Origin: Kiritimatiellia bacterium | Lineage (GTDB): Bacteria > Verrucomicrobiota > Kiritimatiellia > RFP12 > UBA1067 | Length of the DNA: 64,000 nucleotides | NCBI GenBank assembly: GCA_017652705.1 | Contig: JAGCAM010000079.1 | Coordinates: 11,475-75,474, forward strand | Direction: 5' to 3' | Part shown: positions 7,691 to 61,432 of the stretch, one piece after another | Layout of the letters: every line of letters starts with the position of its first letter | Numbering within the stretch: the stretch's first letter is position 1 | Made by a program: the position numbers and the translations under genes | Notes under the pieces: generated by a model | Told to the model about the DNA's origin: nothing | The model's database searches: none | The model's input: the letters and a program-made list of their open reading frames with translations, nothing else

Positions 7691-7699
7691 ATTATATCA
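7691..7699 (-). promoter_or_regulatory. extended -10 box TGATATAAT, 7 nt from the ATG at 7683 (leaderless candidate)
   Basis: The reverse complement of attatatca is TGATATAAT. Confidence 0.55.
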
Positions 7700-41189: not shown

Positions 41190-42688
41190 AGCGCCTTGAT
41201 GAAGATGTTGCGCCACTCGGTCGGATCGCCGTGGCACTGCAGCTCGATCTGCTCGCTCGCCGGCACCGGTTTGTCCCGCTGCCACAGGTTTTCAAGCACG
41301 GTGTTGTCGACGACGAGTTCGCCGTTCAGCCAAACCGACACCTTGTCACCGCGCATGATCACGTGGAAACGATTCCAGTCGCCCACCTGCCGGTCGGCGA
41401 TTTTAAGTGCCTTCGAGAGATTGCCGGTCTTGGCCGTGTTGTTGTTGTAAAGGCCGCCGGAACCGATGTGCCACTGGTTGTGGGCGTCCCAGATCTGCAC
41501 CTGGGGCACACCGCGGAGGTAAAGCCCCGAGTCGCCGGTGATGGACATGATGCGCCAGTCGCACCACATTTCGAAATCGCCGTAATTGCGCTTGGTGGCG
41601 AGGGAATATCCGCCGCGGTAGCCGTCGAAGAAGAGGTTGCCGTTCCTGACATGCCAGTGCTCGTCGCGGCCCTTGTCGGCGATTTTCTGCATTTCGGCGT
41701 TCTTTTCGGCGGTGGCGGCCGCGCGCGTCGCGGGCTTGTCGAAACCGCCTTCGGTCGTGACGCCCTTCCACATCTTAGCGATCTGGCCGGGGCAGCCGTC
41801 GAAGTAGGTCTCGAAACCGGCGGGCGCGGCCATCTTCTGACGCGGACAGACTTCGCCCATCTTCGCGTCGTCGGGAAGCGGCTTGATGCGGATGTTCTTC
41901 CATTTCACGTTGCTGCCGTGGCCGAGCCAGCCGATGCGGCCGCGCCGGTTGTGGAGACCGGGGTGTTTGCAGTGGTCGGGAGTGTCGCCGTCGCCCTTGA
42001 ATTTCGAGAGGTCGGCCTTGGTGATCAGATAGCCGTTGAGATAAACCTCGATCTCGCTGCCGATGACCTTGACTTCCTCGAAATTCCACATGCCGGGTTT
42101 GCGCACGTAGCTGCCGCCGCCGGTGAAGTTTTTCTCCTTGCCCCAGATCTGCTTGTCGACGTTGTCGCGCAAAGACGGCACTACGCCGTAGACCGAACCG
42201 GTGTACTGGTAGGGCTTAAGCTTGTCGACCTTGTTCGAAGCGTCGTAGTAACTCGAACCGCCGTCGTCGAGCAGCTGCAGCTCGCACATCGCGTGGTACG
42301 CCGCGTCCTTGTCGGGGTCGGAGATGCGTATGCCGAGACCGTTGTTGCCGTTCGGCGGCATGGCGAACTCGAAGCGGAGTATGAAATTGCCGAACTCCTT
42401 CGCGGTGACGAGATCGCCGCGCTGACCCGGGGGCAGTTTGCGGTCGGGGAAGCACTGCAGCACCCCCGGTTCCTTCGGATCTACCCCGTACATGGCGGTG
42501 GCGCCCTGCCACCCCTCGAGGTCGTAGCCGTTGAAGAGCGACACGAAACCTTCGTTCACCGAATCGGGATAGACCCGTCCGCACTCGCAGGAAGGCGCAC
42601 ACGCGCCCTTCTCCGCGCTGTTCAAACCGCAGCAACCCGCGGTCGCCAGAACCGCGGCGCCCGCCGCGGCGATAGTTTTGATTTTCAT
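41186..42688 (-). CDS. lipoprotein with two DUF1080 (3-keto-disaccharide hydrolase-like) domains
   Basis: The ATG at 42688 (MKIKTIAAAG..LATAGCCG) has an SD GGAGGA and an ATGA overlap with the nadC stop. The block FVSLFNGYDLEGW...GNNGLGIR occurs twice. Confidence 0.8.
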   Translation of the reverse strand: MKIKTIAAAGAAVLATAGCCGLNSAEKGACAPSCECGRVYPDSVNEGFVSLFNGYDLEGWQGATAMYGVDPKEPGVLQCFPDRKLPPGQRGDLVTAKEFGNFILRFEFAMPPNGNNGLGIRISDPDKDAAYHAMCELQLLDDGGSSYYDASNKVDKLKPYQYTGSVYGVVPSLRDNVDKQIWGKEKNFTGGGSYVRKPGMWNFEEVKVIGSEIEVYLNGYLITKADLSKFKGDGDTPDHCKHPGLHNRRGRIGWLGHGSNVKWKNIRIKPLPDDAKMGEVCPRQKMAAPAGFETYFDGCPGQIAKMWKGVTTEGGFDKPATRAAATAEKNAEMQKIADKGRDEHWHVRNGNLFFDGYRGGYSLATKRNYGDFEMWCDWRIMSITGDSGLYLRGVPQVQIWDAHNQWHIGSGGLYNNNTAKTGNLSKALKIADRQVGDWNRFHVIMRGDKVSVWLNGELVVDNTVLENLWQRDKPVPASEQIELQCHGDPTEWRNIFIKAL

Positions 42689-43590
42689 TTTGTCCTCCAT
42701 TCCAATGTTAAATCTATGGAACCCGCCGAGTGGGTGAGGCAGCCGAGGGATATGGCCGTCACGCCGGTCGCGGCGACTTTGCGGGCGGTCGCCAGGGTGA
42801 TGCCGCCGGACGCCTCGGTCTTAACTCTGCCGCGGCACATGGCGACGCAGCGCTTCATGTCCGCGCACGACATGTTGTCGAGCATGATCCATTCCGGCAG
42901 CGCCTTGAGGGCGCTCGCGCACTCGCGCGGCGTTTCAACCTCCACCTCCACCGCGAGCCGCGGAAACTTCTTTCTGGCGGCGGCGACGGCGAGGTCAAGC
43001 GCGTCGGGATCGCCGCCGCGCCAGAGCCGGCGGTGGTTGTCTTTGATCAGCACCCGGTCGAACATGCCGAACCGGTGGTTCGAACCTCCGCCGCACAGAA
43101 CGGCGTATTTGTCGAACATCCTGAGCCCGGGGGTGGTCTTGCGGGTGTCGAGTATGACCGTGCCGTAGTGCGCCGTGGCGTCGACGAACTTCTTCGTGAG
43201 CGTGGCCGTCGCGCACATCCGCTGCATGAAATTGAGCGCGGTCCGCTCCGCCGCGAGAATCGATCTCGCTCTGCCGCGGAAGACGAGAATCGGCTCGCCG
43301 CCGCGCACCGTTGAGCCGTCCTTTTTGAGTATCCGCACTTTCACGGCATGATCCACCGCCTTGAAAACCGCAGCGGCCACGGTCGCGCCGGCGACGACGC
43401 AGCCGGCCCCTCGCGCGTATATCTCGCCGTCGGCGAAGACGTTCTCCGGCACCAGCGCCTCCGAAGTCGCGTCAATGCGCCGCCGGGACGCCGAACCGCG
43501 GCCTCCGGGCACGAGGTCTTCGTCCAGCGCGCGCAGGACGGCCTCTTTGGCCGGCGCGGAGCGCATAACGTCCTTCATCTTCGCGGCCAT
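42685..43590 (-). CDS. nadC: nicotinate-nucleotide diphosphorylase (carboxylating)
   Basis: 301 aa with AERTALNFMQRM, LDTRKTTPGLR and LIKDNH. Confidence 0.92.
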   Translation of the reverse strand: MAAKMKDVMRSAPAKEAVLRALDEDLVPGGRGSASRRRIDATSEALVPENVFADGEIYARGAGCVVAGATVAAAVFKAVDHAVKVRILKKDGSTVRGGEPILVFRGRARSILAAERTALNFMQRMCATATLTKKFVDATAHYGTVILDTRKTTPGLRMFDKYAVLCGGGSNHRFGMFDRVLIKDNHRRLWRGGDPDALDLAVAAARKKFPRLAVEVEVETPRECASALKALPEWIMLDNMSCADMKRCVAMCRGRVKTEASGGITLATARKVAATGVTAISLGCLTHSAGSIDLTLEWRTK

Positions 43591-43591
43591 C

Positions 43592-43807
43592 TCAGGCGGG
43601 CATCAGAAATTCCCAATGCTGCCAGAGAATGTAAGTCAGAATGCCGGCTGCGGCGAGGGCGATCAGCCCCGCGACGCCGGCGCAGGCCGCCGCCTTGCCG
43701 CCCCCTGACTTGCGCACGGTCGCGGGGTCGACGGGGTCGAGCCGCAGACGGTCCGCGATTGACACCCCGCCGGGCGCCTTGACCTTCATCGTCTTTTTTA
43801 TTTTCAT
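43592..43807 (-). CDS. hypothetical 71-aa protein with one C-terminal transmembrane helix
   Basis: The N-terminus is Lys-rich, followed by AAACAGVAGLIALAAAGILTYILW. Its stop lies 1 nt before the nadC start, and its ATG lies 6 nt from a TGGTATAAT box. Confidence 0.5.
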   Translation of the reverse strand: MKIKKTMKVKAPGGVSIADRLRLDPVDPATVRKSGGGKAAACAGVAGLIALAAAGILTYILWQHWEFLMPA

Positions 43808-43813
43808 GTCTTC

Positions 43814-43843
43814 ATTATACCACTAATCGCCGCCGGAAATCAA
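43814..43843 (-). promoter_or_regulatory. promoter TTGATT-N18-TATAAT with TG, 6 nt from the ATG at 43807 (leaderless candidate)
   Basis: The extended -10 is attatacca at 43814-43822 (RC TGGTATAAT). The -35 is aatcaa at 43838-43843 (RC TTGATT), located in the loop of the adjacent hairpin. Confidence 0.5.
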
Positions 43844-43855
43844 CCCGGCGGCGAT
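43826..43855 (-). terminator. perfect 11-bp stem-loop, 20 nt after the TIM-barrel gene stop
   Basis: atcgccgccgg-aaatcaac-ccggcggcgat. There is no U-tract, and it overlaps the -35/spacer of the next promoter. Confidence 0.4.
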
Positions 43856-43875: not shown

Positions 43876-44868
43876 TCAGCGGAACCCCTTGTTCCGCAGG
43901 AATTGGTAGCTCGGCAGCACCGCCGAGAGGTCTTCGAAGTGGCGTTCGCACTCGACCACGTACCACTTGACCCCGTCGGCTTCTGTCGCCACGATGAGCC
44001 CGTCCCAGTCGACCGGGACTGCCCCGGGCCTGCCGGGCTGGCCGAGAATGGCGTCGAACTCTTTGACGTCCTTGCCCATGCCGTTCTCCTTAGCGTGGAT
44101 CGTGGGCGAGCGGTGCGGGTATTTGCGGAACTGCTCCTTGGGGTCGACGCCCGCGCAGGTGGACCAGCCGACATCCTGCTCCATGCAGACGTTCTGGCTG
44201 GTGTTGGAGAAGAAATAATCCCAGAACGAAGTGCCGTCGGTCATCTTGATGCCGTGTTCCCACGTGTGGTTGTGCAGGCCGATGCGGCAGCCGTACTTCG
44301 CCGCGACTTCGGCGCCCTTGTTGTAGAGTTCGACGAGACGCTTGGTGAATTCGTCGATCTCCTTCGTCGGCTGGCAGGTTTCGCCGCCCTGGCCGGTGGA
44401 CCATTTCGCGCCCGGGGGAATGTTGCCGCCGCCGGGGCAGATGATGAGGTTGTTGCCGTAGGCGAGGTTGAAATCGCACGTCGCCTTCATCACGTCGGGG
44501 TTGAACGACCATTCTGCGGTGTTGAAACCGAATTCGCCGTTGCCGACGTGGGTTCCGCAGGCGACGAGCCCGCTGTCGGCGAGCATCTTGCGCAGCGCGA
44601 TCGCGTCGTTGCCGTAGTAGCCGGCGAATTCCACGCCGGTGTAGCCGATCGCCGCGACGTCGTCGAGCGCCTTGGCGAGACCGGCGGCGGGAACAGTTTC
44701 CTTGCCGTCCTTGTCTTTTCTGCCGCCGATGTAGGCGTGGATGGAGTAGAGCTGCAGCGCGAGCCGCGCCTGAAGGGATCTGCCGCTAGAGCAGATGCAG
44801 CCCGGCAGCGCGACCGCGGCTCCGCCGGCGCCGATCGCCGACAGAAACTGTCTTCTTGATACGTTCAT
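43876..44868 (-). CDS. TAT-exported xylose-isomerase-like TIM-barrel protein (sugar phosphate isomerase/epimerase family), lipoprotein
   Basis: 330 aa with a twin-arginine signal MNVSRRQFLSAIGAGGAAVALPGC. It has the AP endonuclease 2/xylose isomerase-like layout. Confidence 0.8.
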   Translation of the reverse strand: MNVSRRQFLSAIGAGGAAVALPGCICSSGRSLQARLALQLYSIHAYIGGRKDKDGKETVPAAGLAKALDDVAAIGYTGVEFAGYYGNDAIALRKMLADSGLVACGTHVGNGEFGFNTAEWSFNPDVMKATCDFNLAYGNNLIICPGGGNIPPGAKWSTGQGGETCQPTKEIDEFTKRLVELYNKGAEVAAKYGCRIGLHNHTWEHGIKMTDGTSFWDYFFSNTSQNVCMEQDVGWSTCAGVDPKEQFRKYPHRSPTIHAKENGMGKDVKEFDAILGQPGRPGAVPVDWDGLIVATEADGVKWYVVECERHFEDLSAVLPSYQFLRNKGFR

Positions 44869-44917
44869 CTTTATTTTCCTTTCTTTTATTTTGGGTGAAT
44901 CTGGTCAAATCCTGTTG

Positions 44918-46315
44918 TCACCAGCCGGAGAGACGCGGCAGATTGAGCCGCCCGTTGGCCGGGGTCGATCCGTCGAACCTGCCGGCGGAGGCGTTCCAGA
45001 CAAGCTTTTTGCCCGAGTCGAAGAGCGCCGCGACGCCGAGCAGCGAACACTGCGTCATCGCGCCGGCGTACACGAAATCGCTGCCGACTTTCGGCCCGCC
45101 CGCGACAGCCCTCACGAACTCGATGTACGGCTTGTCGTCGGGTGCGTCGCCCGGTATGCGCTCGTACTTGCGCGGGGGCAGCGCGTTGTCGGCGCGCATC
45201 TTTTCAAGAGTGCGGTCCGGCAGCAGCCGCAGGAAGTTCGCCCCGTGGTGGCCGTACTCGATCACCCCCTTCGTGCCGTAGACGAACGCGCCGTTGCACA
45301 TCCAGTTGCGGCCGGCGCGGGCCTCCTTGCTGTTGTACGGCGGAAAGTACTTCATGTCGTCAAGATACTGCGAAGGCTTCGGCACGTCTTTGCACGCGAC
45401 GCCGTCGTACCATACGAGCTTGAACGGTTTGCCGTCCGGCTTCGTGTAGCAAAACGTCGTCTTCACCCCTTTGGGGAACGTGTCACCGTGAACTTCGGGC
45501 CGCCAAGAACCAACCACGTCGGCCTGCACGCTCAAAGGCAGACCGAAGCCGAACGTCCAGAAAATCGGATCCATCAGATGGCAGCTCCAGTCGCCCAGCG
45601 TGTTGCAGCCGTACATCGTCCAGCACCGCCACGTTCCCGGACAGTACTTCGGGTAGTACGGCCGGTGCGGAACCGGCCCCTGCCACTGGTTCCAGTCGAG
45701 CGTGGATGGAACCTCCCACTTCTTTTTGAGCTCGGCGAGGTCGTCCATGTACGAATACACGGCCGGGCACCAGATGTGCGCCTCGGTGACTTCCCCGATG
45801 AGCCCGGCTTCAATCCATTCGCGGAAGTCGCGGATGGTGTCGAAGGCGTGGCCCTGGTTCATCGCCTGGGTGACGAGTTTCGGATTCTCCTTCGCCGCCT
45901 TGAGCATCGACTCCATTTCACTGAAGCTCTGGCAAAGCGGCTTTTCGCACTGCACGTGCTTGCCCCGCTTCAGGCATTCGACCGCCATGGTGGCGTGCCA
46001 GTGGTCGGGCGTGCCGATCAGCACCGCGTCGATGTCGCGGTCCATTTTGTCGAGCATGGTGCGGTAGTGGGAAAAGAACGGCACGGCGGAGTGGGCCTTG
46101 CGCATCGCCTCGCTGCGCTTGAGGTCGACGTCGCAGAGCGCCACGAACTTCGCGCCGGCTTTTTCCAGCCCGCGCATGTCGTCGGCAGGTCGGCCCCCGC
46201 AGCCGATCGCCGCCATCTGCACCGTCTCATTGGCGCGGTAGGCAGTCGCACAGCCAGAAAATATCATCGGGAACCCGAACGCCGAAGCGCCCCGTATGAA
46301 TTCACGTCTGTTCAT
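44918..46315 (-). CDS. TAT-exported Gfo/Idh/MocA oxidoreductase, lipoprotein
   Basis: 465 aa with MNRREFIRGASAFGFPMIFSGC, a Rossmann MAAIGCGGR, TPDHWH and CEKPL. Confidence 0.85.
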   Translation of the reverse strand: MNRREFIRGASAFGFPMIFSGCATAYRANETVQMAAIGCGGRPADDMRGLEKAGAKFVALCDVDLKRSEAMRKAHSAVPFFSHYRTMLDKMDRDIDAVLIGTPDHWHATMAVECLKRGKHVQCEKPLCQSFSEMESMLKAAKENPKLVTQAMNQGHAFDTIRDFREWIEAGLIGEVTEAHIWCPAVYSYMDDLAELKKKWEVPSTLDWNQWQGPVPHRPYYPKYCPGTWRCWTMYGCNTLGDWSCHLMDPIFWTFGFGLPLSVQADVVGSWRPEVHGDTFPKGVKTTFCYTKPDGKPFKLVWYDGVACKDVPKPSQYLDDMKYFPPYNSKEARAGRNWMCNGAFVYGTKGVIEYGHHGANFLRLLPDRTLEKMRADNALPPRKYERIPGDAPDDKPYIEFVRAVAGGPKVGSDFVYAGAMTQCSLLGVAALFDSGKKLVWNASAGRFDGSTPANGRLNLPRLSGW

Positions 46316-46360
46316 GTTGTTTTATCTCCTTTACCGGTTATGAAATCGACGACATCGGCG

Positions 46361-49300
46361 TCACTTCACCGTGACGGTCTTCTCGGACGAGACTCCGGTC
46401 ATCACGTCGGTTACGACGATCTTCCAGCGGTCGACGCTTTCGTTGAACGCCACGCGGAAGTCGCACGACGCCCTGCCCCCCTTCGCGTCCACCAGCTTGA
46501 ACTTGACGGGCGCGAGGCGCTCGAAGCTTTCGCCCTCCGGCGGCAGCATTTCGAAGCGCAGCACGTGGGTGACGGGCTTCGCCCCCGCGTCGCCGGCGAC
46601 GACCGCCGCCTCCACGTGCAGGTCGGAACCCTTCGCCGCCGAATCCGGCGCGTTCACCTCCACCGCCTTCACCTCGTAGGGCAGCAGCGCGTAGAAGCAC
46701 TCGTCGAGCCCGTTGAACACCACCGGTATCGCGTCGGTGCGGCCGACGGGTCTGCCCGCGCGGATGTCGTAGACCCAGTTCGTCGAGGCGAGTTTGACCT
46801 CCGCCTTCATCGGGAAGCGCTCGCAGCTGCGGCCCGACTTCTCCACTCCGAGGCACACCGCGCCGTCGCGCGTGAAGCGCGTGAATTCGGCCGGCACCGT
46901 CACTCCGTCGGCCACCGCCCGCGCGAACGGCCGGTGCCCGCAGGCCGCGAAAACGCGGCGGAACGCCTCGTTCGCCGCGCCGAGTTCGCCGCGCCCGTCC
47001 AGAAACGGTATCGCAGCCATGTTGATGTTGAACAGCACCGCCCTGCCCTTGCCGAATTCGCGGACGAAAAACGCCTCCGCGCCGGACGCCGCCCGGGCAT
47101 GCGCCTTCGCGCCGGACGCCCGCAGCGACGCGTCGACCAGAACCCCCTTGATCTCCACCGGCGCGGCGGCGAGCCCCTCCACGCGCAGCGTCGCGTGCTC
47201 GACCTTCGCCTCCGGCGAGAGCCGCTTCACGCCGAAGAGTTCGTCCAACGGAGGCTTCGCGTGGCGGACACCGTCCACCCCGTGCGTCGCGATGCGCGCG
47301 TCGGCGATGACGCTGCCGCCGTTCCTGACGAACGAAATTATCTCCTCGATCTCCTTGTCGCTCAGGATCTGCGTGTAGCCGAGCACCAGCGTCTTGACGC
47401 CTTTCCTGAGGTCGCCCTTCTCGATCATTTCGCTCGAAATGCCGTCCCACTGGAAACCGTGCGCGACCACCAGCCCTTCAAGCGTGCCGCGGGCCTGGCC
47501 GTGGGTGCTCATCTCTTTCACGAGCGGGCTGAGATGGCCGGAGTTGCGGCTCACCAGCACGCGGATGCCGTCGTTCTCGCGCTTGGAACGGGTGGTGAGC
47601 GCCACCGGCCCGCGCATGATTTCGCGGTACGTCGCGAACATCCACCCCGCGCGGCCGGGGTTCACCGACCCGTCGCCTTCGACCATGTAGCTGCCCAGCC
47701 AGAACCAGCTGAAATTGCACCCGTCGAGAAGGCCGTGCCATACCTGCCGTTCGCGAATCGGCCTCTTTACCTTCTTGCCGCCGTACACGCCGATGCACTC
47801 GCCGATGTAGCGGTGCGGAACTGCCCGCGCGAGCTGGATGTCTTCGCTGCCGGCGTAGGGGCAGACCGTGTTGAGGTGCTTGAGCACGTCGTACTTGATG
47901 TTGCCGAGCGTCGACGCGCCGAACCCGAAGCCGATCGACCGGTCGCGCGAACAGACCCCGCGCGCGATCGCCGCCGCCTGGTCGACGAACGCGTCCTCGA
48001 GGTACGTCTGCCGGTCGATCGCCGGCGCAAACACGCCGTCCTTCTGCCGTTCCTCTATCAGCTTCTGCTCGATTTCGAGAAAATCCTTCACCGACGTCTT
48101 CCACACGGCGTTGAGCTTGTCGACCGTGCCGTACTTCTTCTTCAGCCAGAAGAGGAAGTTCACGTACTGCGGCGACTCGGCGGGTTTCGCCGCCTTCACC
48201 GCCTCGAGCGTGACGTCTTTCCAGTCGGCGAACTTCGTGTTCAGATGCGCGTTCATCACTTCCACCCTGTCGTACGCGTCGCGCATCGCCGCGACGACCG
48301 TCGGCAGTTCGTTCGGCGTCAGGTTCTCGACCATCTTCGCCACCGAATCGCGGTCGGTTCCGAACAGCCGGAAGTCCTTCACCCCCTGCCTGCGCAGGTT
48401 CTCGGCCTTGCGCTCGCGGTACGCCGGCACCCAGTCGGGTATGGTGTTCTGAATTACGCTCGGTGCACCCGAGTCGTCGCCGAGCGAAATGAAGCGCCCG
48501 TTGATTTTCCGACACTGCTCGGCGTGTTCCGCGTAGCGGCGTTCGAGATGCTTCAGCCACCAGCGGCTTGAAATCGAGCAGCCCCTGTCGGAGGTGCTGC
48601 CGGGTATGCGGTCGCGGATGACCGGGTCGCCGCCGCGAAAGCACGATCTGACGTCGCTGGTCTCCCACAGATCAATGCCGCAGTACTGGAAGTATGCAAG
48701 GCGAAGCTCAGCGAATTCGCCGCTGCCGCACGGGTCGGTGGTGAAAATGCGGTAGTCCGCGCCAGCGTCGCCGCGGTGGAGAAAACAGGTCAGCCGCCTG
48801 ACGTCGAAAACCCGGTCGCCTTCAAGGTAGACGTCGATGAAGTTGCAGCTCCAGTCGAGAAACTTCTGGTCGAAGACGATTTCGACCGAATCCGCCGAGG
48901 CGTCGACCGCCGCCTCCACCCGCGAAATGACGCGGTTGCGCACGTCGCGCAGATCGCCGCGCACTTTGAGCCCGCCCGCCGACGCGCCGTTCACCGCCGC
49001 CCTGACCGCGATCTTCTCGCCCGGGTTGAACGTGCCGCGCCCGGCCGAGAACCGAACTTCGCCGAACTCCGGCGGCGCGATCTCCGCGCGGCAGTAGGCG
49101 CCGCCGCAGCCGCACTTGACCGGCTTGCCTGGCTTGATCACCAGTTCGCCTGAAGCGAAATCGAGCAGCTTGCCGCCCGCCTCGAGCCGCGCGTCGACCG
49201 TGTAGCGGCCCGCGCCGAGCCGCGGCGCCGCGAGCGTCACGTGGTTGGTGCCCGCCGGCAGATCCACCGCGGGGCGGTCCGGGCCCGCCAGAAGCCTGCC

Positions 49301-51379
49301 GAACGTGTCGCGTACCCGCCAGACGACTTCGCCCTTCCACGCCGGGCCCGCGGTGGTCAGCGTCGCCGCCGCACCGGTGCCGCCGTCCTGCACCGGAGCG
49401 CCTACTTCGAGGCAGCGGCGTTTGCCGCGCATGCCCAGCCCCGTCATCACCGCGCGGGCCGCCGCGGCGAGGCAGTATTCGTCTTCGTAGGCGATGTCCG
49501 GCGTGAGCGTCCAGCCGGGCGTGATCAGCGTCGTCAGGCACCACCCGGCCGCCCTGCCCGGATTGTAGCAGGCGAACGAACCCTTGCCGAACGCCGCGGT
49601 CGCGACGCCGGGCAGCCGGCAGTCGATCGACTTTTCAAGATCGAACCTCCCGCCGCCTTCCGGACGCACGAGTTTCACCATCCCCTTCGGGTTGCCCCGC
49701 GCGAGTTCTTTTTCGTGCTCGACTTCGCGGCCGAACACGTTGTTGCCGTTCACCACCACCACCTTCGCCCCTTCGAGCATCCGCCCGTAAAGCCAGCACT
49801 GCAGCTCCATCGGCCACGCATCGATCGACGTGCCGAGAAAGACGAACTGTTCGTACGGCGTCTCCTTGAGCATCCGCTCGAGCATCTTGCGCTTCTCCGG
49901 CGCGAGCATCAGGCCTTCGTAGAAATAGTCGCTCGTCTTGCCGAGACCGCGGTCGAAACACTGAAAAACGTCCGCGTCGACGTCAAGCCGGTTCATCAGC
50001 GCCCACGCCTCCCACGCGCCGTGCTGGTGGGCGCAGACGAGCGTCTTGCCGGACGCCCGCTCCGCGAGGTTCTTCGCCCACGGGAACAGCGTCGGTTCGC
50101 TGTTCCGGCGTTCCCACGGCTTCGGCGTTCGCTCCGGCTCCTCGGCGAATTTGTCCGGCGCGTCGGCCGGCGGGTTGATCTTCACCGGCACGCGCACTTT
50201 CTTCTCCGTGCGCATCAGGTTGCGCACGCACTCCCAGTAGGCGTTTTCGAACGCGGCGTCCCACGCTTTGTTCTTGCGTTCCAGCTCCGAAACCGCCGCG
50301 ATGTCCAGCTTCGCCGCGGCAAGCACGTTCGACCTGGCCGTCTCGTATTCGCCCCGCTGGCTGGATATCCGCCTGAGGACGTCGCCGAAGAACCCCTTTC
50401 TCGGCGGCTCGGTTATTGATGCTACGAAATCGTCGAGACGCTTGAGTTTCGCCCCGCAGCCGGCTATGCACTCCTTGCCCTTGGCGAGATAGCTGAGCCG
50501 CGACTCGCGGCCGTGGTCGACCACCACGTATTCCGAATCGGTCTGCACGTAGATCGTGCGCCGGTCGAGATCAGGATACGCCAGCCGCAGCCCGTCAACC
50601 GGGTTCTTCGGCGTCTTCTCCACCAGCACGCACTTGCCGTAGAGCTCGGCGTTGTGGTGGGTCTGCCCCTGGGTCGACCAGCCCAGCACCGCCATCGCTT
50701 CGCGCGTCGAGTCGGGCGGCAGTCCGGAACCAGGTTTCGGATACCACGTCTTCCAGAGCCTGATACGCGCGGGCTCCATGCCGAAAATGTAGCCGACTTT
50801 CGCTTTCATCTCCAAGTGCGTCAGCGCGAAGCGCGCCTCCACCTGCCAGTAGTCCTTGCCGATCGTGTACGCCTTGTCCCAGTCGGAGTTGAGCCCGTAG
50901 TTGCTGTCGGCGAGAATGCCCCAGCCGAAGTCGTAGTACCAGATGATCTCCTTCTCGTCGGTCGGGTTCAGCCAGATCTGGAACTTCGTGTGGCGGTCGT
51001 TGTTGCCGTCGAGGTGCAGTTCGACGTTGTCCCGCCAGATGAAGTTCCGCCGGCGGTCGTTGCGCGCGTCGTTGAACCGCTTCATGTTCTCCGGGGTGTC
51101 CTCCCAGCAGGTGGCCAGCACGTAAAAGTACTTGTCGTCCCAGAGACACCTGAATTCGGTGCGCGGCGTCTTCCACCGCGTGTCGATGGAGACCGTCGTG
51201 CAGCCGAATTCCGTCAGCGGCACGGCGCGTTTCCAGTCGGCCTCGTCCATCTTGCCGTCGATGACGACGGGGGCGGTCGCCTTCTCGACGAAGTGCAGTT
51301 TGAAACTGTCGGTCGTCTTGTCGGCCGCCTGCGCGGCCGCCGCGATCGAAACCGCTGCCAGTATGGTCGTCTTTTTCAT
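46361..51379 (-). CDS. giant secreted multidomain protein: N-terminal CBM9-like domain, Ig-like modules, GH42-like barrel and amidotransferase-like domain
   Basis: 1672 aa with a signal peptide. It has VIDGKMDEADWK (CBM9-like), FLFWLKKKYGTVDKLNAVWKT (GH42-type block) and VKTLVLGYTQILSDKEIEEIISFVRNGGSVIAD (GH42 M-domain-like). The function is not assignable. Confidence 0.75.
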   Translation of the reverse strand: MKKTTILAAVSIAAAAQAADKTTDSFKLHFVEKATAPVVIDGKMDEADWKRAVPLTEFGCTTVSIDTRWKTPRTEFRCLWDDKYFYVLATCWEDTPENMKRFNDARNDRRRNFIWRDNVELHLDGNNDRHTKFQIWLNPTDEKEIIWYYDFGWGILADSNYGLNSDWDKAYTIGKDYWQVEARFALTHLEMKAKVGYIFGMEPARIRLWKTWYPKPGSGLPPDSTREAMAVLGWSTQGQTHHNAELYGKCVLVEKTPKNPVDGLRLAYPDLDRRTIYVQTDSEYVVVDHGRESRLSYLAKGKECIAGCGAKLKRLDDFVASITEPPRKGFFGDVLRRISSQRGEYETARSNVLAAAKLDIAAVSELERKNKAWDAAFENAYWECVRNLMRTEKKVRVPVKINPPADAPDKFAEEPERTPKPWERRNSEPTLFPWAKNLAERASGKTLVCAHQHGAWEAWALMNRLDVDADVFQCFDRGLGKTSDYFYEGLMLAPEKRKMLERMLKETPYEQFVFLGTSIDAWPMELQCWLYGRMLEGAKVVVVNGNNVFGREVEHEKELARGNPKGMVKLVRPEGGGRFDLEKSIDCRLPGVATAAFGKGSFACYNPGRAAGWCLTTLITPGWTLTPDIAYEDEYCLAAAARAVMTGLGMRGKRRCLEVGAPVQDGGTGAAATLTTAGPAWKGEVVWRVRDTFGRLLAGPDRPAVDLPAGTNHVTLAAPRLGAGRYTVDARLEAGGKLLDFASGELVIKPGKPVKCGCGGAYCRAEIAPPEFGEVRFSAGRGTFNPGEKIAVRAAVNGASAGGLKVRGDLRDVRNRVISRVEAAVDASADSVEIVFDQKFLDWSCNFIDVYLEGDRVFDVRRLTCFLHRGDAGADYRIFTTDPCGSGEFAELRLAYFQYCGIDLWETSDVRSCFRGGDPVIRDRIPGSTSDRGCSISSRWWLKHLERRYAEHAEQCRKINGRFISLGDDSGAPSVIQNTIPDWVPAYRERKAENLRRQGVKDFRLFGTDRDSVAKMVENLTPNELPTVVAAMRDAYDRVEVMNAHLNTKFADWKDVTLEAVKAAKPAESPQYVNFLFWLKKKYGTVDKLNAVWKTSVKDFLEIEQKLIEERQKDGVFAPAIDRQTYLEDAFVDQAAAIARGVCSRDRSIGFGFGASTLGNIKYDVLKHLNTVCPYAGSEDIQLARAVPHRYIGECIGVYGGKKVKRPIRERQVWHGLLDGCNFSWFWLGSYMVEGDGSVNPGRAGWMFATYREIMRGPVALTTRSKRENDGIRVLVSRNSGHLSPLVKEMSTHGQARGTLEGLVVAHGFQWDGISSEMIEKGDLRKGVKTLVLGYTQILSDKEIEEIISFVRNGGSVIADARIATHGVDGVRHAKPPLDELFGVKRLSPEAKVEHATLRVEGLAAAPVEIKGVLVDASLRASGAKAHARAASGAEAFFVREFGKGRAVLFNINMAAIPFLDGRGELGAANEAFRRVFAACGHRPFARAVADGVTVPAEFTRFTRDGAVCLGVEKSGRSCERFPMKAEVKLASTNWVYDIRAGRPVGRTDAIPVVFNGLDECFYALLPYEVKAVEVNAPDSAAKGSDLHVEAAVVAGDAGAKPVTHVLRFEMLPPEGESFERLAPVKFKLVDAKGGRASCDFRVAFNESVDRWKIVVTDVMTGVSSEKTVTVK

Positions 51380-51419
51380 TCGCTTTTCTCCCCCGCGCCG
51401 CGGAATCTTTCCGCAACGC

Positions 51420-54400
51420 TCATTTCACCGGTGCCGCGAGCGTCACCGCCGCCGCGCTTTCAAGCCCGGTCGCCATGTCGCGCAGCACAACTTTGTAACG
51501 TCCGGGCGCGTCGGAATACGGGAACTGGAAGTCCACCTTCGTCTTGCGGTCCGCGCAGAACAGCGTTTCGCGGTTCGCGATGCGCGCGCCTGCGGGCGAC
51601 TCAGTCTCCAGCCGGTATACCGAGCCTTTGCGCAAAACCGCCGTGTCCAGCGAAATCTCGTCGCCGGGCGCGATTTCCGTCTTCGTCAGCCTGACTTCGG
51701 GCGGCCGCTGCTCGGTCTTGAACGCCGCGTAGAGCGCATGCGGTTTCTCGAGACGCGCGATCGTTATGCGGTCGGACCGGCCGATGAAACCGACATCGGA
51801 TTCATACACCCACTTCTCCTCGCCGAGCTCGATTTCCGCCCGCTTGCCGAGATTGTAGGTGCTGGTGACGAACCCGAGCAGCGTCATGTCGCCGAGTTCG
51901 CGGATCCGGAACTTGACACCGTCCGTCGAAATCCCGGAAAGCTTCTCCTTCACCGTTATCCCGCTCTCGGCGAGCAGCGCGGTTATCCGGTCGTCTTTCC
52001 AGCCGCGCTTGAGCTCCTTCCATAGACCGGAGAGCGGCGGTTTTTCGCGGCGCGCGAGGTATCCGTCGAGAACGCCCGGTTCGCAGTCGGAATATATCTT
52101 GCCGCCGCGTTTCGCGAACTTGGCGAGCGCGGCGGTTTCGCCGTCGTCGAGGGCGACCGCGCCGGAGAGAAACAACGCCTTCATCTCGTCCAGCCTGCAC
52201 AGCGACCGCCGGGTGACGATCGCCGTGTCCATGCCGTTGCGGTAGCAGTAGTCGATGAACGCGCCGTTGCCCTCGCGGGCGGACGGAAAATCGTCCGAAA
52301 GCGTCGACGCGTGGTTGGAGGCGTGGGAATAGTAGATCGCGAAGGCGCTTTTCCGCATCGGCACCCGGCACAGCAGCGCGCCGATCCCGCGCGACAGCGG
52401 CCTCCACGTGGGCAGCATGCGCTTCACGTACGGTGCCGGCTGAAAATCGCTCGACATTCCGGACTCCGCGCTCGCGGGGTCCATCTGGAACCAGAGGTCG
52501 GCGTTGAGGGTTCCGCACAGCACGTACCCCCACTGCTCCGCGGCGAAACCGTCGCGCGGCGAGCGTTGGTAGCCGCCCCACCAGATGCCGCGCAGGCAGC
52601 GCGGCGCGATGTTGCGCACCAGTTCGTCGTCGACCTTGTTGCCGTACGGCCCCCAGAACTCCAGTTTCGAAAGCGTGTATTCGATGTCGGCGCCGGGCGA
52701 CCCCTCCGCGCCGCAGCGCGCTTTCGGGTCGCGCTTCTTGATTATCGCCGTCAGTTCGTGGAATGTGTCGGCGTAGAGGTGCTCCGCGTACTGCACCTGG
52801 TCGTACCACGTCACCCAGTCGTTCGCCGCCCTGGACGCTTTCACGCGCACGTGCGGCGCCTCCGCGAAGTCCGCTATGTTGGTGCCGTGCGCCCGGTTGT
52901 ACGCCGCAAGCGTGCCGTAACGCTTCTTCAGATAATCGCGGTAGTACCCTTCGCTCTCGGCGTCGCCGAAGCCGATGTCGGACGAATACCCGCACTCGTC
53001 GCCGAAACTCCAGGCGAGCGGTCCGTACGGCAGCGTTGCGTCGATTCTCTTGTTGTAGAAACGCGCGAGCCGCTCGCGGACCGCCGGCCGGTGCACGTTG
53101 AGGTCGTGCCCGTTCGCGTCCCACCACTGCTTGATTTCGGGATCGCCGCGCGACGATTTCGGTATCGGGCATTGCGTCGTCCACACCGTGCCGCTGGGAC
53201 CGGCGGCGAGGCACACGCGCGTCGAATACGGCAACGCCCGACCGTTGAATATCGCGCTCAGCGAGCCGGACGACAGATGGTTGTTGTAGCCGATTTCATC
53301 CATCAGCGGGGGCGCGAAGAGTTCCGCGAGATTGCCTGGGCCGATGCCGTCCCAGCAGATCATCGCGTAGTCTTCGAAACGGTGCGTCGGGAAGAACACC
53401 AGTTTCTTCACCTTCGCCGCCGCGCCCCCGTCGGCCTTCCTCAACGTCACGTCGACGCACCCCGCCTTCGTCGGGAACGGCTTCGCGGCGATCTGATACC
53501 TCACGCTCCGCGCGCCGCCGCCCACCGGAATCTTGCACCTGGCCCGCACCTGGCGGTAGGGCATGTCGCGCAGCAGCACATCGACCGTCCACTTCTCCCC
53601 ACGAGGCACGGGCTTCTCCCACGCGATCACCGTGTCGAACCGGCAGCCCTCCGCTACCACCATCCTGTTCGTGCCGTTGACGGTCATCGCCCCGACCGGG
53701 CTCTGCACCGTAAACTTCCTCACCGACGCGAAATCGTCGCAGCCGCCGCTCCCCGGCACCACGTCGACGTAGTAGTCGCCCCCGGAGTAACCGGATATGT
53801 CGACCGCGAACACGTTGCGCCCGGCCTTGACCGGCGCCGTCTCGTCGACCAGCAGTTCGTTGTCAGACGATCTCACCCGGTACTTCACCGAATCGCACGC
53901 GCCGCGGGGCGCGGCTTCCACGGTGAACGGATACAGCTCGGTGCCGAGCGGCAGCGGCTCGGCCACGCCGGCGGCCTGCGCGAATTTAACCGTCGACGCC
54001 GGGTTGCGCCCCGCCGCGTAACGCGCCGCGTTCATGAAATACGTCGACCGCGTCTCGTAGTTGGCCCTCCACGCGAAGTTCCAGAATTCAGGCACCGGCA
54101 CGTCGATGCACACCACGCGCCCCCTGCCGTAGCGGTACGCCCTCACCGCCTTCGGCGACAGCCCCGCCGCCGACAGTATCCGCCGGCCTTCCTCGTCGGG
54201 CTCGAGGTACTTCTCGTCGGGCACCAGATCGCGCCCAACCCTGGAACCCCGCAGCACCAGCCCCACCCCCTCGTCATGCACCCGCCTGACGATCTCGCAG
54301 CGGTACACCGCCGGTATGCCGGACGGATAGGTGTAGTGAAGCACGATCACTTCGGGGTTTTTCGCCAGCATCGTTTCAAACTGACGGTAGCGCGGCAGCG

Positions 54401-55667
54401 GCAGCCCCCCGGTCACGAGATCGGCGAAGATCGACGAATATCCGAACGGCATCGGGAAAACATCCACCTTGAAATCGCAGCGCTGGCAGACCTCAACCGC
54501 ATCGCGGACCCACGGCCCGGTTCCGGTTATGCACAGCACCTTCGCCGCGCCGCCGAGCGATTTTTCGCACCATTTCAGATGCGGCGTCACGTACGCCGTC
54601 TGACTCGGATTCCACCTGAACCAGCCGTTGTGGCCGTCGTACTCCTTCGGCGGGTTGAGGTCGTATGTGCCGGCGAGCCGCAGCTTCTTCGGCGGCAGCG
54701 GCTTCTCCATCGTCGCCATCCTGACTATGTTGGTGAGCGCGGCGTCCGTCTCCGCCTTGTCCGCCGCGGCGATTTCGTCGAGCGTCTCCTGTATCGTCTT
54801 CGATATCTCGCGCGTGCCGTCTTCGTCGTGCAGGTAGCTCTTGCCGCCGATGCCGACCGCCCAGTACCCTGGCACGCGCTTCTCGATCATCTTAAGTATC
54901 GTCGCCGCGGCTGGCTTCGCCCCGTCGGAAAACTGCAGATACCCGAACCTGTTCGCCGAGAAAAAGCTCGCCATCACCGCCGAAGCGCCGAAATCGCCCC
55001 AGCCGCGCTCGGTGAAACGGAACCGCGAATGGTTGAACCGCCACACTTCGCCCGGCCTGACCTTCGCCCGCCCGTGCAGCGCCGCCCACGGTATGAAAAG
55101 CTCGAATTCCCAGCGGTCGCTGAATATCTTCGCCGCGCTCTTGATGCCGTCGGGCTTCCACGCCGGCTGCGGATTGTTCGGATCCATTCTCCAGAGCGTG
55201 GAACAGACGCCGAGCGAATTGACCATGAACTTGTAGAACCCGACCGCGTCGCCGACCGGATCAAGGTAAATCTCGCCGATGTCGTCGGTCTCGATCGCAT
55301 TGTCGCCGCTCTTGCGGGCCCGTTGCCGCAGATTGCCGGGCTGCGACTCGGGGTTGCACACCCCGACGTACAACCCCGCGTCGTCGTACATGATCGCCGC
55401 GCTCGTGCCCTCGAACTTGTGCTTCGGCCGCGGTTTTATGTATTCGTAGTAGACCGTGTGCGGCATGGCGTCTTTCCAGCACGCATCGTCGAGCGCCCCG
55501 TCGATTTTCGGCGGCGTCTTCGCCGGCATCGCCACGTCAAATGAGATTTCCGCCACGTCCACCGCCTGCACCGCCGCCGCGAACACTGCCGCAACGCCGC
55601 ATACCGCGGCCCTCAATGCCGTCAAGCGGCCGGTATGTCGGTCGACAAAAGATTTTTCAGTTTTCAT
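51420..55667 (-). CDS. giant secreted paralog of the 1672-aa protein (CBM9-like + GH42-like architecture)
   Basis: The start is reset to MKTEKSF (ATG at 55667), behind a TGGTAGAAT box. It has IDGALDDACWK, YYRDYLKKRYGTLAAYNRAHGT, SFGDECGY and ALAKFAKRGGKIYSD. Confidence 0.75.
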   Translation of the reverse strand: MKTEKSFVDRHTGRLTALRAAVCGVAAVFAAAVQAVDVAEISFDVAMPAKTPPKIDGALDDACWKDAMPHTVYYEYIKPRPKHKFEGTSAAIMYDDAGLYVGVCNPESQPGNLRQRARKSGDNAIETDDIGEIYLDPVGDAVGFYKFMVNSLGVCSTLWRMDPNNPQPAWKPDGIKSAAKIFSDRWEFELFIPWAALHGRAKVRPGEVWRFNHSRFRFTERGWGDFGASAVMASFFSANRFGYLQFSDGAKPAAATILKMIEKRVPGYWAVGIGGKSYLHDEDGTREISKTIQETLDEIAAADKAETDAALTNIVRMATMEKPLPPKKLRLAGTYDLNPPKEYDGHNGWFRWNPSQTAYVTPHLKWCEKSLGGAAKVLCITGTGPWVRDAVEVCQRCDFKVDVFPMPFGYSSIFADLVTGGLPLPRYRQFETMLAKNPEVIVLHYTYPSGIPAVYRCEIVRRVHDEGVGLVLRGSRVGRDLVPDEKYLEPDEEGRRILSAAGLSPKAVRAYRYGRGRVVCIDVPVPEFWNFAWRANYETRSTYFMNAARYAAGRNPASTVKFAQAAGVAEPLPLGTELYPFTVEAAPRGACDSVKYRVRSSDNELLVDETAPVKAGRNVFAVDISGYSGGDYYVDVVPGSGGCDDFASVRKFTVQSPVGAMTVNGTNRMVVAEGCRFDTVIAWEKPVPRGEKWTVDVLLRDMPYRQVRARCKIPVGGGARSVRYQIAAKPFPTKAGCVDVTLRKADGGAAAKVKKLVFFPTHRFEDYAMICWDGIGPGNLAELFAPPLMDEIGYNNHLSSGSLSAIFNGRALPYSTRVCLAAGPSGTVWTTQCPIPKSSRGDPEIKQWWDANGHDLNVHRPAVRERLARFYNKRIDATLPYGPLAWSFGDECGYSSDIGFGDAESEGYYRDYLKKRYGTLAAYNRAHGTNIADFAEAPHVRVKASRAANDWVTWYDQVQYAEHLYADTFHELTAIIKKRDPKARCGAEGSPGADIEYTLSKLEFWGPYGNKVDDELVRNIAPRCLRGIWWGGYQRSPRDGFAAEQWGYVLCGTLNADLWFQMDPASAESGMSSDFQPAPYVKRMLPTWRPLSRGIGALLCRVPMRKSAFAIYYSHASNHASTLSDDFPSAREGNGAFIDYCYRNGMDTAIVTRRSLCRLDEMKALFLSGAVALDDGETAALAKFAKRGGKIYSDCEPGVLDGYLARREKPPLSGLWKELKRGWKDDRITALLAESGITVKEKLSGISTDGVKFRIRELGDMTLLGFVTSTYNLGKRAEIELGEEKWVYESDVGFIGRSDRITIARLEKPHALYAAFKTEQRPPEVRLTKTEIAPGDEISLDTAVLRKGSVYRLETESPAGARIANRETLFCADRKTKVDFQFPYSDAPGRYKVVLRDMATGLESAAAVTLAAPVK

Positions 55668-55674
55668 GAAGTTA

Positions 55675-55683
55675 ATTCTACCA
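55675..55683 (-). promoter_or_regulatory. extended -10 box TGGTAGAAT, 7 nt from the ATG at 55667 (leaderless candidate)
   Basis: The reverse complement of attctacca is TGGTAGAAT. Confidence 0.5.
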
Positions 55684-55740: not shown

Positions 55741-57267
55741 TCACTTGCGGGGGACGGACTGCCCGCCGGCGCAGCTGCACGGCAGAAACCGCACGCGTAC
55801 CATCTCCGCGTCCGAAAGCCGGACGTCGTCAGGCAGCGGACCGGGCTTCTCCGCCGAAACGAAAGCGTTCGGCCGCGGCTCCTGGACGGGCACGACGATC
55901 CATTCCGACCCGTCGGCCTTCCGCTCGACGCGCCCGCCTTCCGCCGCAACGACCTGGCGGACGAGTTTTTCGCTGACGGCCTTGAGTTTGTCCCAGTCGT
56001 AGTCGGTGAATTCCCACTTTCTGCCGCGGTCGAGCTTTTCCAGAAACCCGCCCCGGATGCGGCTCGCGCCGAGCGAGGCTCCGAGCACTCCGCAGGCGGA
56101 GGCCGGGTTGCAGTCCGAATCGCATCCGCACCCGGTGGCGATCCTCGCGGTTTTCTCCATGTCGCCATCGCCCCACAGGTATCCGATCAGCACGTAAGCG
56201 CCGTTCAGCCTGACGTCGATGCCGGCAAAGGAGACGAATCTGCAGTTCTGGGGCGTGAAGTATTTGCGCGTAAGCGCCTCCCACGCAGTCCGCCAGTTCG
56301 ACGGGTCGCGCCCGTACGCCGCGAGCGTGTCGCGCACCATCTCCGCGTAGCGCGACTCCGCCGGAATGTGCCTGAGCGCCGAGCGCACGACCGAGGGGCG
56401 GTCCTGCGTGAAATACGCCTCGGCGTACATCGCCCCTACGAACTGCCCCGCGTAGAGCCCGTCGCCGTAGTTCATCACCGCGCCGAACCGGTTGCCCAGC
56501 CTGACCGCGCGGTTGGGCAGCCCCGGCGATATTATGCCGCTGAAGTCGGCCTCGATCTGATAGTCTATGTCGTACGGGGTCGGATGAAAGTTCGGGTGCC
56601 CGCAGCTGGGCGCCGCAATCCCGCGGCGCAGATTGTTCCGGGCGTTGTGGTTCGCGCACCACAGCCGGTACTTAGAATTGGCGAAGGCGATGCCGGCCTC
56701 GCGCGCGTCAACGTCGACTCCGCACCTGTCGAGCACGTCGAGAAACGTCATCTCCACGTAGAGATCGTCCTGGCAGAAGGTGCCGTTGATGATCTCGGCC
56801 TTGTATTCAGGCATGAGGTCGTCAGGCACGGGCTTGCCTACGCATTTGAATTCCGTCGGCGCGCCGTAGGCGACGCCGATGGACTGCCCGAGCCACGCGC
56901 CGGACATCCTGTCGCGGAATTGATCCATGGCGAGACTTCTCTCCGGCGCAGCCCTCTTCGCCCCTGTCTTCGGAACGGCTTTCTCTTTCGGCGCGGCGCC
57001 GACCCCTTCAATCGAATTCTTCTCCGCAACTTCGCCCTTTTCCGCACTTTTGACGGCGGCCCTCTCTTCGGGCAGATCGACTATCGTGCCGGGAAGCAGT
57101 TTCCTGCCCCCTATTACATTGCCGCCTTCTATAACCTCGACCGGCACGTCGCGCTTAAGCCGGTAGCTTCTGATCTTTCGGACGTCGTTTTGCTTCTCCT
57201 GCCCGAATGCCGCAAAAATCGCCAGCGCCATCGCGCAGACGGCCGTCATCGCTACGTGTTTCTTCAT
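55741..57267 (-). CDS. secreted ADP-ribosylglycohydrolase-family protein with N- and C-terminal extensions
   Basis: 508 aa with a signal peptide MKKHVAMTAVCAMALAIFAA. The core MSGAWLGQSIGVAYGAPTEF...QDDLYVEMTFL...YGDGLYAGQFVGAMYAEAYF...TGCGCDSDCNPA is typical of the ARH/DraG fold. Confidence 0.8.
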   Translation of the reverse strand: MKKHVAMTAVCAMALAIFAAFGQEKQNDVRKIRSYRLKRDVPVEVIEGGNVIGGRKLLPGTIVDLPEERAAVKSAEKGEVAEKNSIEGVGAAPKEKAVPKTGAKRAAPERSLAMDQFRDRMSGAWLGQSIGVAYGAPTEFKCVGKPVPDDLMPEYKAEIINGTFCQDDLYVEMTFLDVLDRCGVDVDAREAGIAFANSKYRLWCANHNARNNLRRGIAAPSCGHPNFHPTPYDIDYQIEADFSGIISPGLPNRAVRLGNRFGAVMNYGDGLYAGQFVGAMYAEAYFTQDRPSVVRSALRHIPAESRYAEMVRDTLAAYGRDPSNWRTAWEALTRKYFTPQNCRFVSFAGIDVRLNGAYVLIGYLWGDGDMEKTARIATGCGCDSDCNPASACGVLGASLGASRIRGGFLEKLDRGRKWEFTDYDWDKLKAVSEKLVRQVVAAEGGRVERKADGSEWIVVPVQEPRPNAFVSAEKPGPLPDDVRLSDAEMVRVRFLPCSCAGGQSVPRK

Positions 57268-57994: not shown

Positions 57995-58080
57995 GGTGGG
58001 ATACTCAAGTGGTCAACGAGGGCAGACTGTAAATCTGCTGGCTTGCGCCTTCCAAGGTTCGAATCCTTGCCCCACCACCA
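57995..58080 (+). tRNA. tRNA-Tyr (anticodon GTA), long variable arm, CCA encoded
   Basis: 86 nt. Acceptor GGTGGG(A)/CCCCACC, anticodon stem GCAGA/TCTGC with loop CTGTAAA, T arm CAAGG-TTCGAAT-CCTTG. It is collinear with my recollection of E. coli tRNA-Tyr. Confidence 0.9.
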
Positions 58081-59799: not shown

Positions 59800-59813
59800 G
59801 ACCGGCCCTTCCG

Positions 59814-61373: not shown

Positions 61374-61432
61374 TTCCTTTTCAGTGTTTTCAATCGTGTT
61401 GTTTCATCCGTTGACGGTTGAGCCGCCGGCGG

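Follow-up and report, generated by a model that had tools for sequence, protein, structure and literature searches.

We analysed a 64,000-nt stretch of contig JAGCAM010000079.1 from a Kiritimatiellia bacterium (hereafter the window), in which four consecutive genes encode two giant proteins (G1 and G2), an oxidoreductase of the Gfo/Idh/MocA family (GFO_A) and a xylose-isomerase-like TIM barrel (TIM_A). It is fairly probable that these genes form a lineage-specific four-gene unit, a reshuffle of mobile glycan-degrading modules that are co-regulated at most, and not an obligate integrated system. A first-pass annotation of this DNA had proposed a functional tie between the giants and the oxidative pair GFO_A/TIM_A. 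This tie was not borne out, as the arrangement of giants with GFO_A and TIM_A was found in none of the approximately 40 loci encoding G1- or G2-family proteins.

Around the giants, neighbouring genes differed from locus to locus. Near the G2-family genes (loci L001-L014), they included genes for sulfatase, TMEM260-like, Amidohydro_2, Metallophos (twice), Laminin_G_3, PIG-L, GH123-like, GH2 and rhamnosidase proteins. The G2 homologue of locus L005, 75% identical, is followed by a Metallophos gene, and the partial gene upstream of it is not G1-like, so that the G1-G2 adjacency itself is not conserved. Among the G1-family loci (L090-L117), including that of a 63%-identical homologue, no TIM or DUF1080 relative was found in flanks of up to 10 kb, and a Gfo-like gene was present, at a distance, in only two of them.

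Orthologues of TIM_A are far commoner than the giants (more than 120 clusters at 64-73% identity). Five of these clusters carry an organism name: four are Kiritimatiellae or Kiritimatiellia metagenome-assembled genomes (MAGs), and one is an unclassified "bacterium". These orthologues adjoin Gfo genes in the window and at loci L122-L124, where the Gfo is a different paralogue, and not at L118-L121, where a GDSL-type esterase gene precedes the orthologue and no Gfo gene adjoins it. The gene order at L122-L124 is M18 peptidase, Gfo, TIM_A orthologue, GFO_B, TIM_B, without giants, and the Gfo protein encoded beside the TIM_A orthologue (515 aa) shares just 27% identity with GFO_A. The window reads M18, DUF1080, GFO_B, TIM_B and then, about 13 kb further, G1, G2, GFO_A, TIM_A. 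The M18 peptidase, GFO_B and TIM_B are 81-82% identical and syntenic between the window and L122-L124, these loci holding a Gfo gene and the TIM_A orthologue where the window has a DUF1080 gene. Since the four-gene arrangement is absent from relatives, and since the TIM_A orthologue is found elsewhere with another Gfo, the operon appears to be the product of a recent rearrangement. From these comparisons, the linkage of giants and pair is lineage-specific, and a shared pathway is not shown by it.

The anatomy of the operon, i.e. four genes separated by 40, 45 and 49 nt between a leaderless-type promoter and an 11-bp hairpin, was confirmed from the open reading frames (ORFs) and the sequence. 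All features given below lie on the minus strand unless stated otherwise. The first gene, G1 (51420-55667), encodes 1415 aa from its ATG, rather than the 1416 aa first reported, the places of the four genes being as described; public annotation uses a TTG start 14 codons downstream of this ATG, giving 1401 aa. The G1 and TIM_A sequences are deposited under locus tags J6T01_ from a "Kiritimatiellae bacterium" MAG. It is followed by G2 (46361-51379, 1672 aa), GFO_A (44918-46315, 465 aa) and TIM_A (43876-44868, 330 aa). All four products have predicted export signals, Sec-type for the giants and twin-arginine (Tat) for GFO_A and TIM_A. The Shine-Dalgarno sequences announced at each start were found before the internal starts (GGGGAG, AAGGAG and AAAGGA for G2, GFO_A and TIM_A in turn), and not before that of G1, which has a leaderless-type promoter in its place. 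There, an extended -10 box, TGGTAGAAT (55675-55683), lies 7 nt ahead of the G1 ATG, with TTGCCC 17 nt upstream.

We searched the window for this pattern (TGnTAnAnT, 5-8 nt, ATG). It occurred 8 times, always on the gene-bearing strand and at ORF starts (ATG at 63837, 55667, 43807, 36685, 16732, 15183, 7683 and 2385). In 100 runs of simulated sequence the mean was 0.17 and the maximum 3, so that the leaderless reading stands well above chance. This promoter architecture is a house style of the source organism. The instances at 16732 and 7683 suggest starts downstream of the longest-ORF starts, for the DnaB gene and ORF 6499-7941.

At the other end of the operon, 20 nt past the TIM_A stop codon, an 11-bp stem rich in G+C closes an 8-nt loop (ATCGCCGCCGG/CCGGCGGCGAT, 43826-43855). 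This hairpin has no T tract and is the probable end of the transcription unit. The next leaderless-type promoter, TGGTATAAT (43814-43822, ATG at 43807), begins 3 nt downstream of the hairpin. No promoter-like or terminator-like site was found in the three internal gaps. An Rfam scan of the window returned two tRNAs only, and no regulatory RNA within the operon. Given this layout, co-transcription of the four genes is plausible, and a single G1-G2-GFO_A-TIM_A transcription unit is the simplest reading.

The third gene product can be placed with some precision. GFO_A matches PF01408 (Rossmann, 2e-20) and PF19051 (C2-type C-terminal domain, 2.9e-8), both above cut-off. Its best NCBIfam match is the BT_2158 family of glycoside 3-dehydrogenases (NF058561; 221 bits, E 2e-65, residues 3-447), against 54 bits (E 8.6e-15) for the iolG/inositol 2-dehydrogenase model. 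The equivalog cut-off of NF058561 is 750 bits, far above this score, so GFO_A is a homologue of BT2158 and no equivalog. Among solved structures, its best relatives are 8TDF and 8TDH (E 4e-45, 3.6e-45 for 8TDF; 34% identity over 259 positions), with which the EKP and GD..CH motifs are conserved. Inositol dehydrogenases came out at about 1e-12 in the same search, and DgpA at about 1e-10; with an E-value of 4.6e-6 for structure 6T2B, GH109 is not the closest relative either. The BT_2158 family and 8TDF thus surpass inositol dehydrogenases and GH109 by at least 30 orders of magnitude, and GFO_A is the closest to the BT_2158 family among the three stand-alone Gfo genes of the window. As the first-pass annotation had supposed, GFO_A groups with glycoside 3-dehydrogenases: by its similarities it is a homologue of BT2158-type periplasmic glycoside 3-dehydrogenases, not an inositol enzyme.

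The TIM barrel, TIM_A, passes the cut-off of Pfam PF01261 (AP_endonuc_2; 38.5 bits against 31.1), and its best relatives among solved structures are 8TCD, 8TCS and 8TCT (E 1.6e-11; 30% identical across 220 positions). TIM_A shares the motifs HNH, DV.W and H.K[DE] with them. The PDB codes of these barrels neighbour those of the best matches of GFO_A. Overall, the best solved relatives of the pair, the dehydrogenases 8TDF/8TDH and the sugar phosphate isomerase-type barrels 8TCD/8TCR/8TCS/8TCT, are only some 30-34% identical to the proteins of the window. From the depositor names, we take 8TDF and 8TCD to be structures of Nasseri et al. 2024.

Both proteins of the pair begin with a Tat signal. 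In TIM_A, the signal SRRQFL...LPGC passes the Pfam TAT_signal and TIGR Tat models, LPGC being a possible lipobox. GFO_A has an NRREFIRG twin-arginine motif, a hydrophobic stretch and then FSGC, again a possible lipobox; the Pfam and TIGR Tat models gave no match on it, and the signal was called from the motif together with the colinearity of the protein with the BT_2158 family model. These signals are not artefacts of start choice, as both genes start at the first start codon of their ORF (an ATG for GFO_A) behind a good Shine-Dalgarno sequence, and the family model begins at residue 3 of GFO_A. We infer the "lipoprotein" label of both proteins from the lipobox-like context of the cysteine.

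Several known systems share the logic of such a pair. In Bacteroides thetaiotaomicron, the Tat dehydrogenase BT2158, the DUF1080 protein BT2157 and the IolE-like barrel BT2156 make up a periplasmic 3-keto-glycoside route (PMC8121099, PMC11300592). Like the BT2156-BT2160 cluster, the operon has an exported Gfo dehydrogenase, whose best family is that of BT_2158, and a xylose-isomerase-type barrel; DUF1080 is also encoded nearby, in the next operon downstream, and on its upstream side the window has a complete DUF1080-Gfo-TIM set. Unlike it, the operon itself has no DUF1080 gene, second dehydrogenase or SusR-type regulator, its barrel is itself Tat-exported, and two giant GH42-like genes precede the pair. 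In Agrobacterium, the barrels encoded by GlycDH/AtOGE/AtHYD-type operons are a beta-eliminase and a hydratase in an oxidation-elimination-hydration-reduction pathway (PMC10628242). The same order of C3 oxidation, beta-elimination, hydration and reduction is described for the DgpA/DgpBC and levoglucosan Lgd systems, the barrels of all these systems being of the Mn-dependent sugar-phosphate-isomerase type, and AtOGE reportedly has no sequence relationship with the C-glycoside enzymes (PMC10628242). These systems act on small-molecule glycosides, and DgpA matches GFO_A at only about 1e-10. On such similarities, the pair GFO_A/TIM_A adds an exported member to a known route of oxidative glycoside cleavage. 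The oxidation/elimination route proposed for it is therefore supported; as a pathway type it is already known (BT2156-BT2160; PMC8121099, PMC10628242) and not new.

The two giants are distant colinear paralogues, judging from BLASTP alignments at 24-26% identity in three colinear blocks. In both, a signal peptide is followed by a CBM9-like (carbohydrate-binding module) domain, a helical linker, a GATase1/ThuA-like alpha/beta domain, two Ig/MG-like beta-sandwiches, a GH42-type (glycoside hydrolase) TIM barrel, a GH42M-like domain B and C-terminal beta-sandwiches. The barrels lie at 52365-53360 in G1 (approximately residues 770-1101) and at 47591-48751 in G2 (approximately residues 877-1263), the latter with a helical insertion of about 90 residues relative to G1. 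AlphaFold2 models of both, built on a 47-sequence alignment, reached a mean local confidence (pLDDT) of 88 and a predicted template-modelling score (pTM) of 0.85 for residues 216-1415 of G1, and 90 and 0.88 for residues 473-1672 of G2. With the G2 model, the best Foldseek match was the GH42 structure 3TTS (8e-21); the G2 family profile matched GH42 8IBR at 1.4e-9, and the family profiles of the giants match GH167 and GH42 sequences. The three-domain A/B/C architecture of GH42 is present. According to the models, each giant has a full GH42-type module preceded by a CBM9-like domain, and the CBM9-like/GH42-like description given to them earlier agrees with the models, the Foldseek search and the family profiles.

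At the sequence level, neither giant belongs to GH42. The whole G1 protein matches no Pfam family, and its isolated barrel scores 13.9 bits with PF02449 (cut-off 21); G2 scores 18.1 bits with PF08532 (GH42M; cut-off 25.8) and 14.8 bits with PF02449, which leaves it outside the family as well. The CBM9 assignment is partial. The N-terminus of G2 passes Pfam CBM9_1 (1.6e-6, 28.5 bits against a cut-off of 23.4) over the first 83 of the 185 model positions only, and that of G1 is linked to CBM9 via its alignment to G2 (26% identity, E 6e-7) and a weak profile match to 1I82. For this structure, CBM9-2 of Thermotoga Xyn10A, the profile E-values were 1.6e-4 with the G2 family and 0.07 with the G1 family. 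The CBM9-like domain is the most conserved part in both giant families. The giants had also been called surface proteins; only Sec-type signals were found, and the Pfam and NCBIfam scans of the giants revealed no cell-surface anchor domain.

We next describe the putative catalytic centres, with strand numbers derived from DSSP assignments of the models and from motif analogy, without three-dimensional superposition on GH42. In the G1 family, an invariant G889-D890-E891 ends strand 4 and an invariant Glu, E988 in VGAEGS, ends strand 5. E891 stands 18 residues ahead of an F..L...YGT...N helix motif, and the same 18-residue spacing is found for the acid/base residues E295 of BovGH167 and E160 of BiBga42A (PMC6923384). 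The residue before E891 is Asp, versus the canonical Asn. In the G2 family, strand 4 ends in an invariant SxGDDS (S965-x-G967-D968-D969-S970), and GFGAS, with no acidic residue, takes the place of the GAEGS of G1. The motifs LGDE[NC], VGAEGS, WGPY and R..WWGGY are shared by the G1 family and most of the wider superfamily; by this comparison, G1 keeps the acidic set of the superfamily and G2 does not. On putative strand 7 (LRGIWWGGY in G1, YIGECIGVYGG in G2), no conserved terminal Glu was found in either family. Under the strand numbering used here, the giants thus do not have the catalytic residues of GH42, in which strand 4 carries Asn-Glu and strand 7 the nucleophilic Glu. D1057 of G1 was considered as the strand-7 residue from the spacing of E472 in BovGH167; it could fit, but it is not conserved across the superfamily. 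Three rare superfamily members (P0099, P0110 and P0121) have the canonical G-N-E on strand 4 and GCDG replacing VGAEGS. Such co-variation of the strand-4 and strand-5 motifs suggests a functional link between both positions. Substrate-assisted N-acetylhexosaminidases (GH20/GH123, GH84) have acidic pairs that the D-E and D-D pairs of the giants may be said to resemble.

Relatives of the giants are numerous, and full-length ones of G2 are rare. A word-indexed search gave 21 clusters for G2 and 26 for G1; full-length G2 relatives were seen in 5 species-representative genomes only. An exhaustive phmmer search with residues 216-1415 of G1 gave 1094 cluster representatives at E<=1e-3, of which 128 were at E<=1e-30. 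Many superfamily members are about 1170 aa long, lack the CBM9-like domain, have partial Pfam GH42 matches and are annotated as hypothetical, and in some relatives a GH51-like (P0026, encoded in the same MAG as the window) or GH29 (P0053) domain is joined to the protein. The four members with an organism name come from Kiritimatiellae or Lentisphaerae MAGs, the single Lentisphaerae name belonging to a member of the wider superfamily. The five full-length G2 loci are titled Kiritimatiellia/Kiritimatiellae (two), Lentisphaerales, Planctomycetota and "uncultured bacterium", and the samples of the homologue loci include yak rectum and Hadza human. No GH42 sequence was present in the 1.9 Mb of fetched homologue loci. 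With GH42, GH167 (BovGH167, 6PTM), GH164 and a GH35-like beta-1,2-glucosyltransferase, the giants share 10-14% identity. They differ from these enzymes by an Asp for the Asn before the acid/base, by a strand-5 Glu (G1) or none (G2) and by the lack of an evident strand-7 Glu. Relative to GH42-type enzymes, they have about 770-880 extra N-terminal residues (the CBM9-like domain, a second GATase1/ThuA-like domain and the two Ig/MG-like domains). On these comparisons, the giants belong to a GH42-related superfamily of which no member has been solved or characterised.

Whether the giants are enzymes, as first assumed, has to be weighed for each of them. G1 keeps its acidic residues; G2 lacks them, which makes its case uncertain. 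G2, and possibly G1, might instead bind glycans or act as a scaffold, as an exported protein whose GH42 fold has decayed. This would fit the Asp at the acid/base position of the G2 family and the lack of an acid where G1 has E988 or D1057, as well as the missing strand-7 Glu and the high conservation of the CBM9-like domain in both families. However, beside its invariant SxGDDS the G2 family conserves aromatic and polar residues in a ring around the strand ends, a pattern usual for active sites that selection maintains, the D-E pair plus Glu is kept in G1 and most of the superfamily, and the GH51-like and GH29 fusions fit a role as carbohydrate-active enzymes. We regard a non-enzymatic role as rather unlikely.

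In the reading that we prefer, a lineage-specific unit of reshuffled modules in a gut Kiritimatiellae genome, the conserved residues of G1 make a working glycosidase on some complex glycan its most likely role. G2, as a derived branch in which D-D stands for D-E and the strand-5 Glu is lost, probably has a different activity or a binding role only. GFO_A, Tat-exported and with bound NAD(P), would oxidise C3 of a glycoside, and TIM_A, Tat-exported and metal-dependent, would then eliminate, hydrate or isomerise the keto-sugar intermediate; the DUF1080 protein of the next operon may contribute a third activity. Gene anatomy, folds, homologies and the unconserved linkage are what the data show; co-transcription, the substrates and any passing of products from giants to pair are what we infer, and biochemical coupling is unsupported.

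Some observations weigh against parts of this account. The spacer between G1 and the ADP-ribosylglycohydrolase gene upstream is 73 nt long and without a clear terminator, and read-through from that gene, or an internal start, is possible. The substrate of GFO_A and its C3 regiochemistry are only predicted, at a score far under the equivalog cut-off. TIM_A is about as similar to IolE (E 2.6e-12, its best NCBIfam match) as to the solved barrels (1.6e-11), its scores against both IolE and the 8TCD-type barrels being far below any family cut-off; this likeness settles nothing, because BT2156, which belongs to the known pathway, is itself IolE-like (PMC8121099). Neither modelled giant shows an obvious counterpart of the canonical strand-7 nucleophile of clan GH-A, which makes hydrolase activity less than certain. 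Finally, two G2-family loci do have genes of the oxidative type downstream: in one, the G2 homologue is followed by DUF4838, DUF1080, one further gene and Gfo (L006), and in the other by DUF1080 directly (L008/L009). This gives a weak hint of a non-accidental association, and a marginal one, because Gfo and DUF1080 genes are common in such genomes.

The same loci would also suit a dedicated extracytoplasmic pathway, one obligate system in which the giants bind or release a glycan that the pair cleaves non-hydrolytically. The tight spacing behind one promoter, without internal signals, and the export of all four products are consistent with it, and G2, devoid of the normal catalytic set, might need the chemistry of a partner. 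Such a pathway is nevertheless unlikely, considering that the arrangement is not repeated at the other giant loci, that the closest homologues of both giants (75% for G2, 63% for G1) have unrelated neighbours, that TIM_A orthologues are common without a nearby giant and have a different Gfo partner in a close relative, and that at least 8 Gfo/TIM/DUF1080 genes in the window make a chance adjacency likely.

Genes for PIG-L-type deacetylases, SASA-type esterases and a BNR sialidase-like protein recur beside G1/G2-family genes (positions within the loci: L014 9225-9977; L008 13127-13927 and 13929-15437; L092 3071-4837; L006 14741-15916). These neighbours hint at acetylated or amino-sugar-containing substrates. 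We consider it quite improbable, at this stage, that the giants are a new GH family derived from the GH42 scaffold with a rebuilt catalytic centre, in which G2-type proteins may join an exported dehydrogenase and barrel or DUF1080 protein on an oxidised polymer. An amino-sugar-containing host glycan would then be a possible substrate, because of the hexosaminidase-like acid pairs and the recurring PIG-L, SASA, sialidase-like and GH123-like neighbours. If true, the oxidise-then-eliminate route would be extended from oligosaccharides to large glycans.

Least likely, and very improbable, is that the pair acts in inositol or sugar-phosphate catabolism, or that GFO_A is a lone GH109-type NAD-dependent glycosidase, with no dehydrogenase and lyase/hydratase pair at all: the IolE match of TIM_A, the 6T2B match of GFO_A and the TIM_A orthologues without a Gfo neighbour point that way, but GFO_A is far nearer to BT_2158 and 8TDF, the IolE likeness extends to BT2156, and the extracytoplasmic location predicted by the Tat signals of GFO_A and TIM_A argues against inositol or sugar-phosphate catabolism.

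Other genes of the window bear on the same chemistry. The next transcription unit (41186-43822), outside the operon, comprises its leaderless promoter, an ORF for a 70-aa membrane protein, nadC and a gene for a 504-aa protein with two DUF1080 (3-keto-disaccharide hydrolase) domains, which could supply the third pathway activity. The genes nadC (quinolinate phosphoribosyltransferase) and DUF1080 share 16 nt; NAD synthesis and a keto-glycoside-hydrolase fold make unusual partners in one apparent operon. Further upstream, a second set (set B, 58558-62482) consists of DUF1080 (61433-62482), the Tat Gfo GFO_B (59814-61373) and the Tat barrel TIM_B (58558-59847). It is more canonical than the operon and adjoins the M18 aminopeptidase gene; the predicted GFO_B and TIM_B ORFs overlap by 34 nt, the barrel having a putative GTG start.

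Directly upstream of G1 lies the gene for the ADP-ribosylglycohydrolase-family protein (55741-57267, 508 aa, Pfam 3e-26), with an N-terminal signal-like hydrophobic segment; it is unusual to find an exported protein of this kind encoded amid genes for glycan degradation. The two tRNA genes detected with Rfam are at 18939-19012 (minus strand) and 57995-58077 (plus strand), the second separating set B from the ADP-ribosylglycohydrolase gene, at the point at which the window and L122 cease to be syntenic. Two fusion proteins are also encoded, one of 1749 aa with GH127, DUF4838 and GH2 (19131-24380) and one of 1118 aa in which a Gfo/Idh/MocA Rossmann domain is joined to DUF4838 (30401-33757). DUF4838 is a domain that we take to be GH163-like, and the 1118-aa fusion holds an oxidoreductase and a glycosidase-like domain in one chain.

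The pair GFO_A/TIM_A is thus one more exported example of a pathway already described in Bacteroides and Agrobacterium, and the window, with at least three stand-alone Gfo genes, two Tat barrels and two DUF1080 genes, confirms the heavy investment of Kiritimatiellae in this route. The giants are the more useful lead, with an active-site signature unlike those of GH42, GH167 and GH164. Characterising one of them could define a new CAZy family, and could show what abundant glycan degraders of gut and sediment do with their largest proteins.

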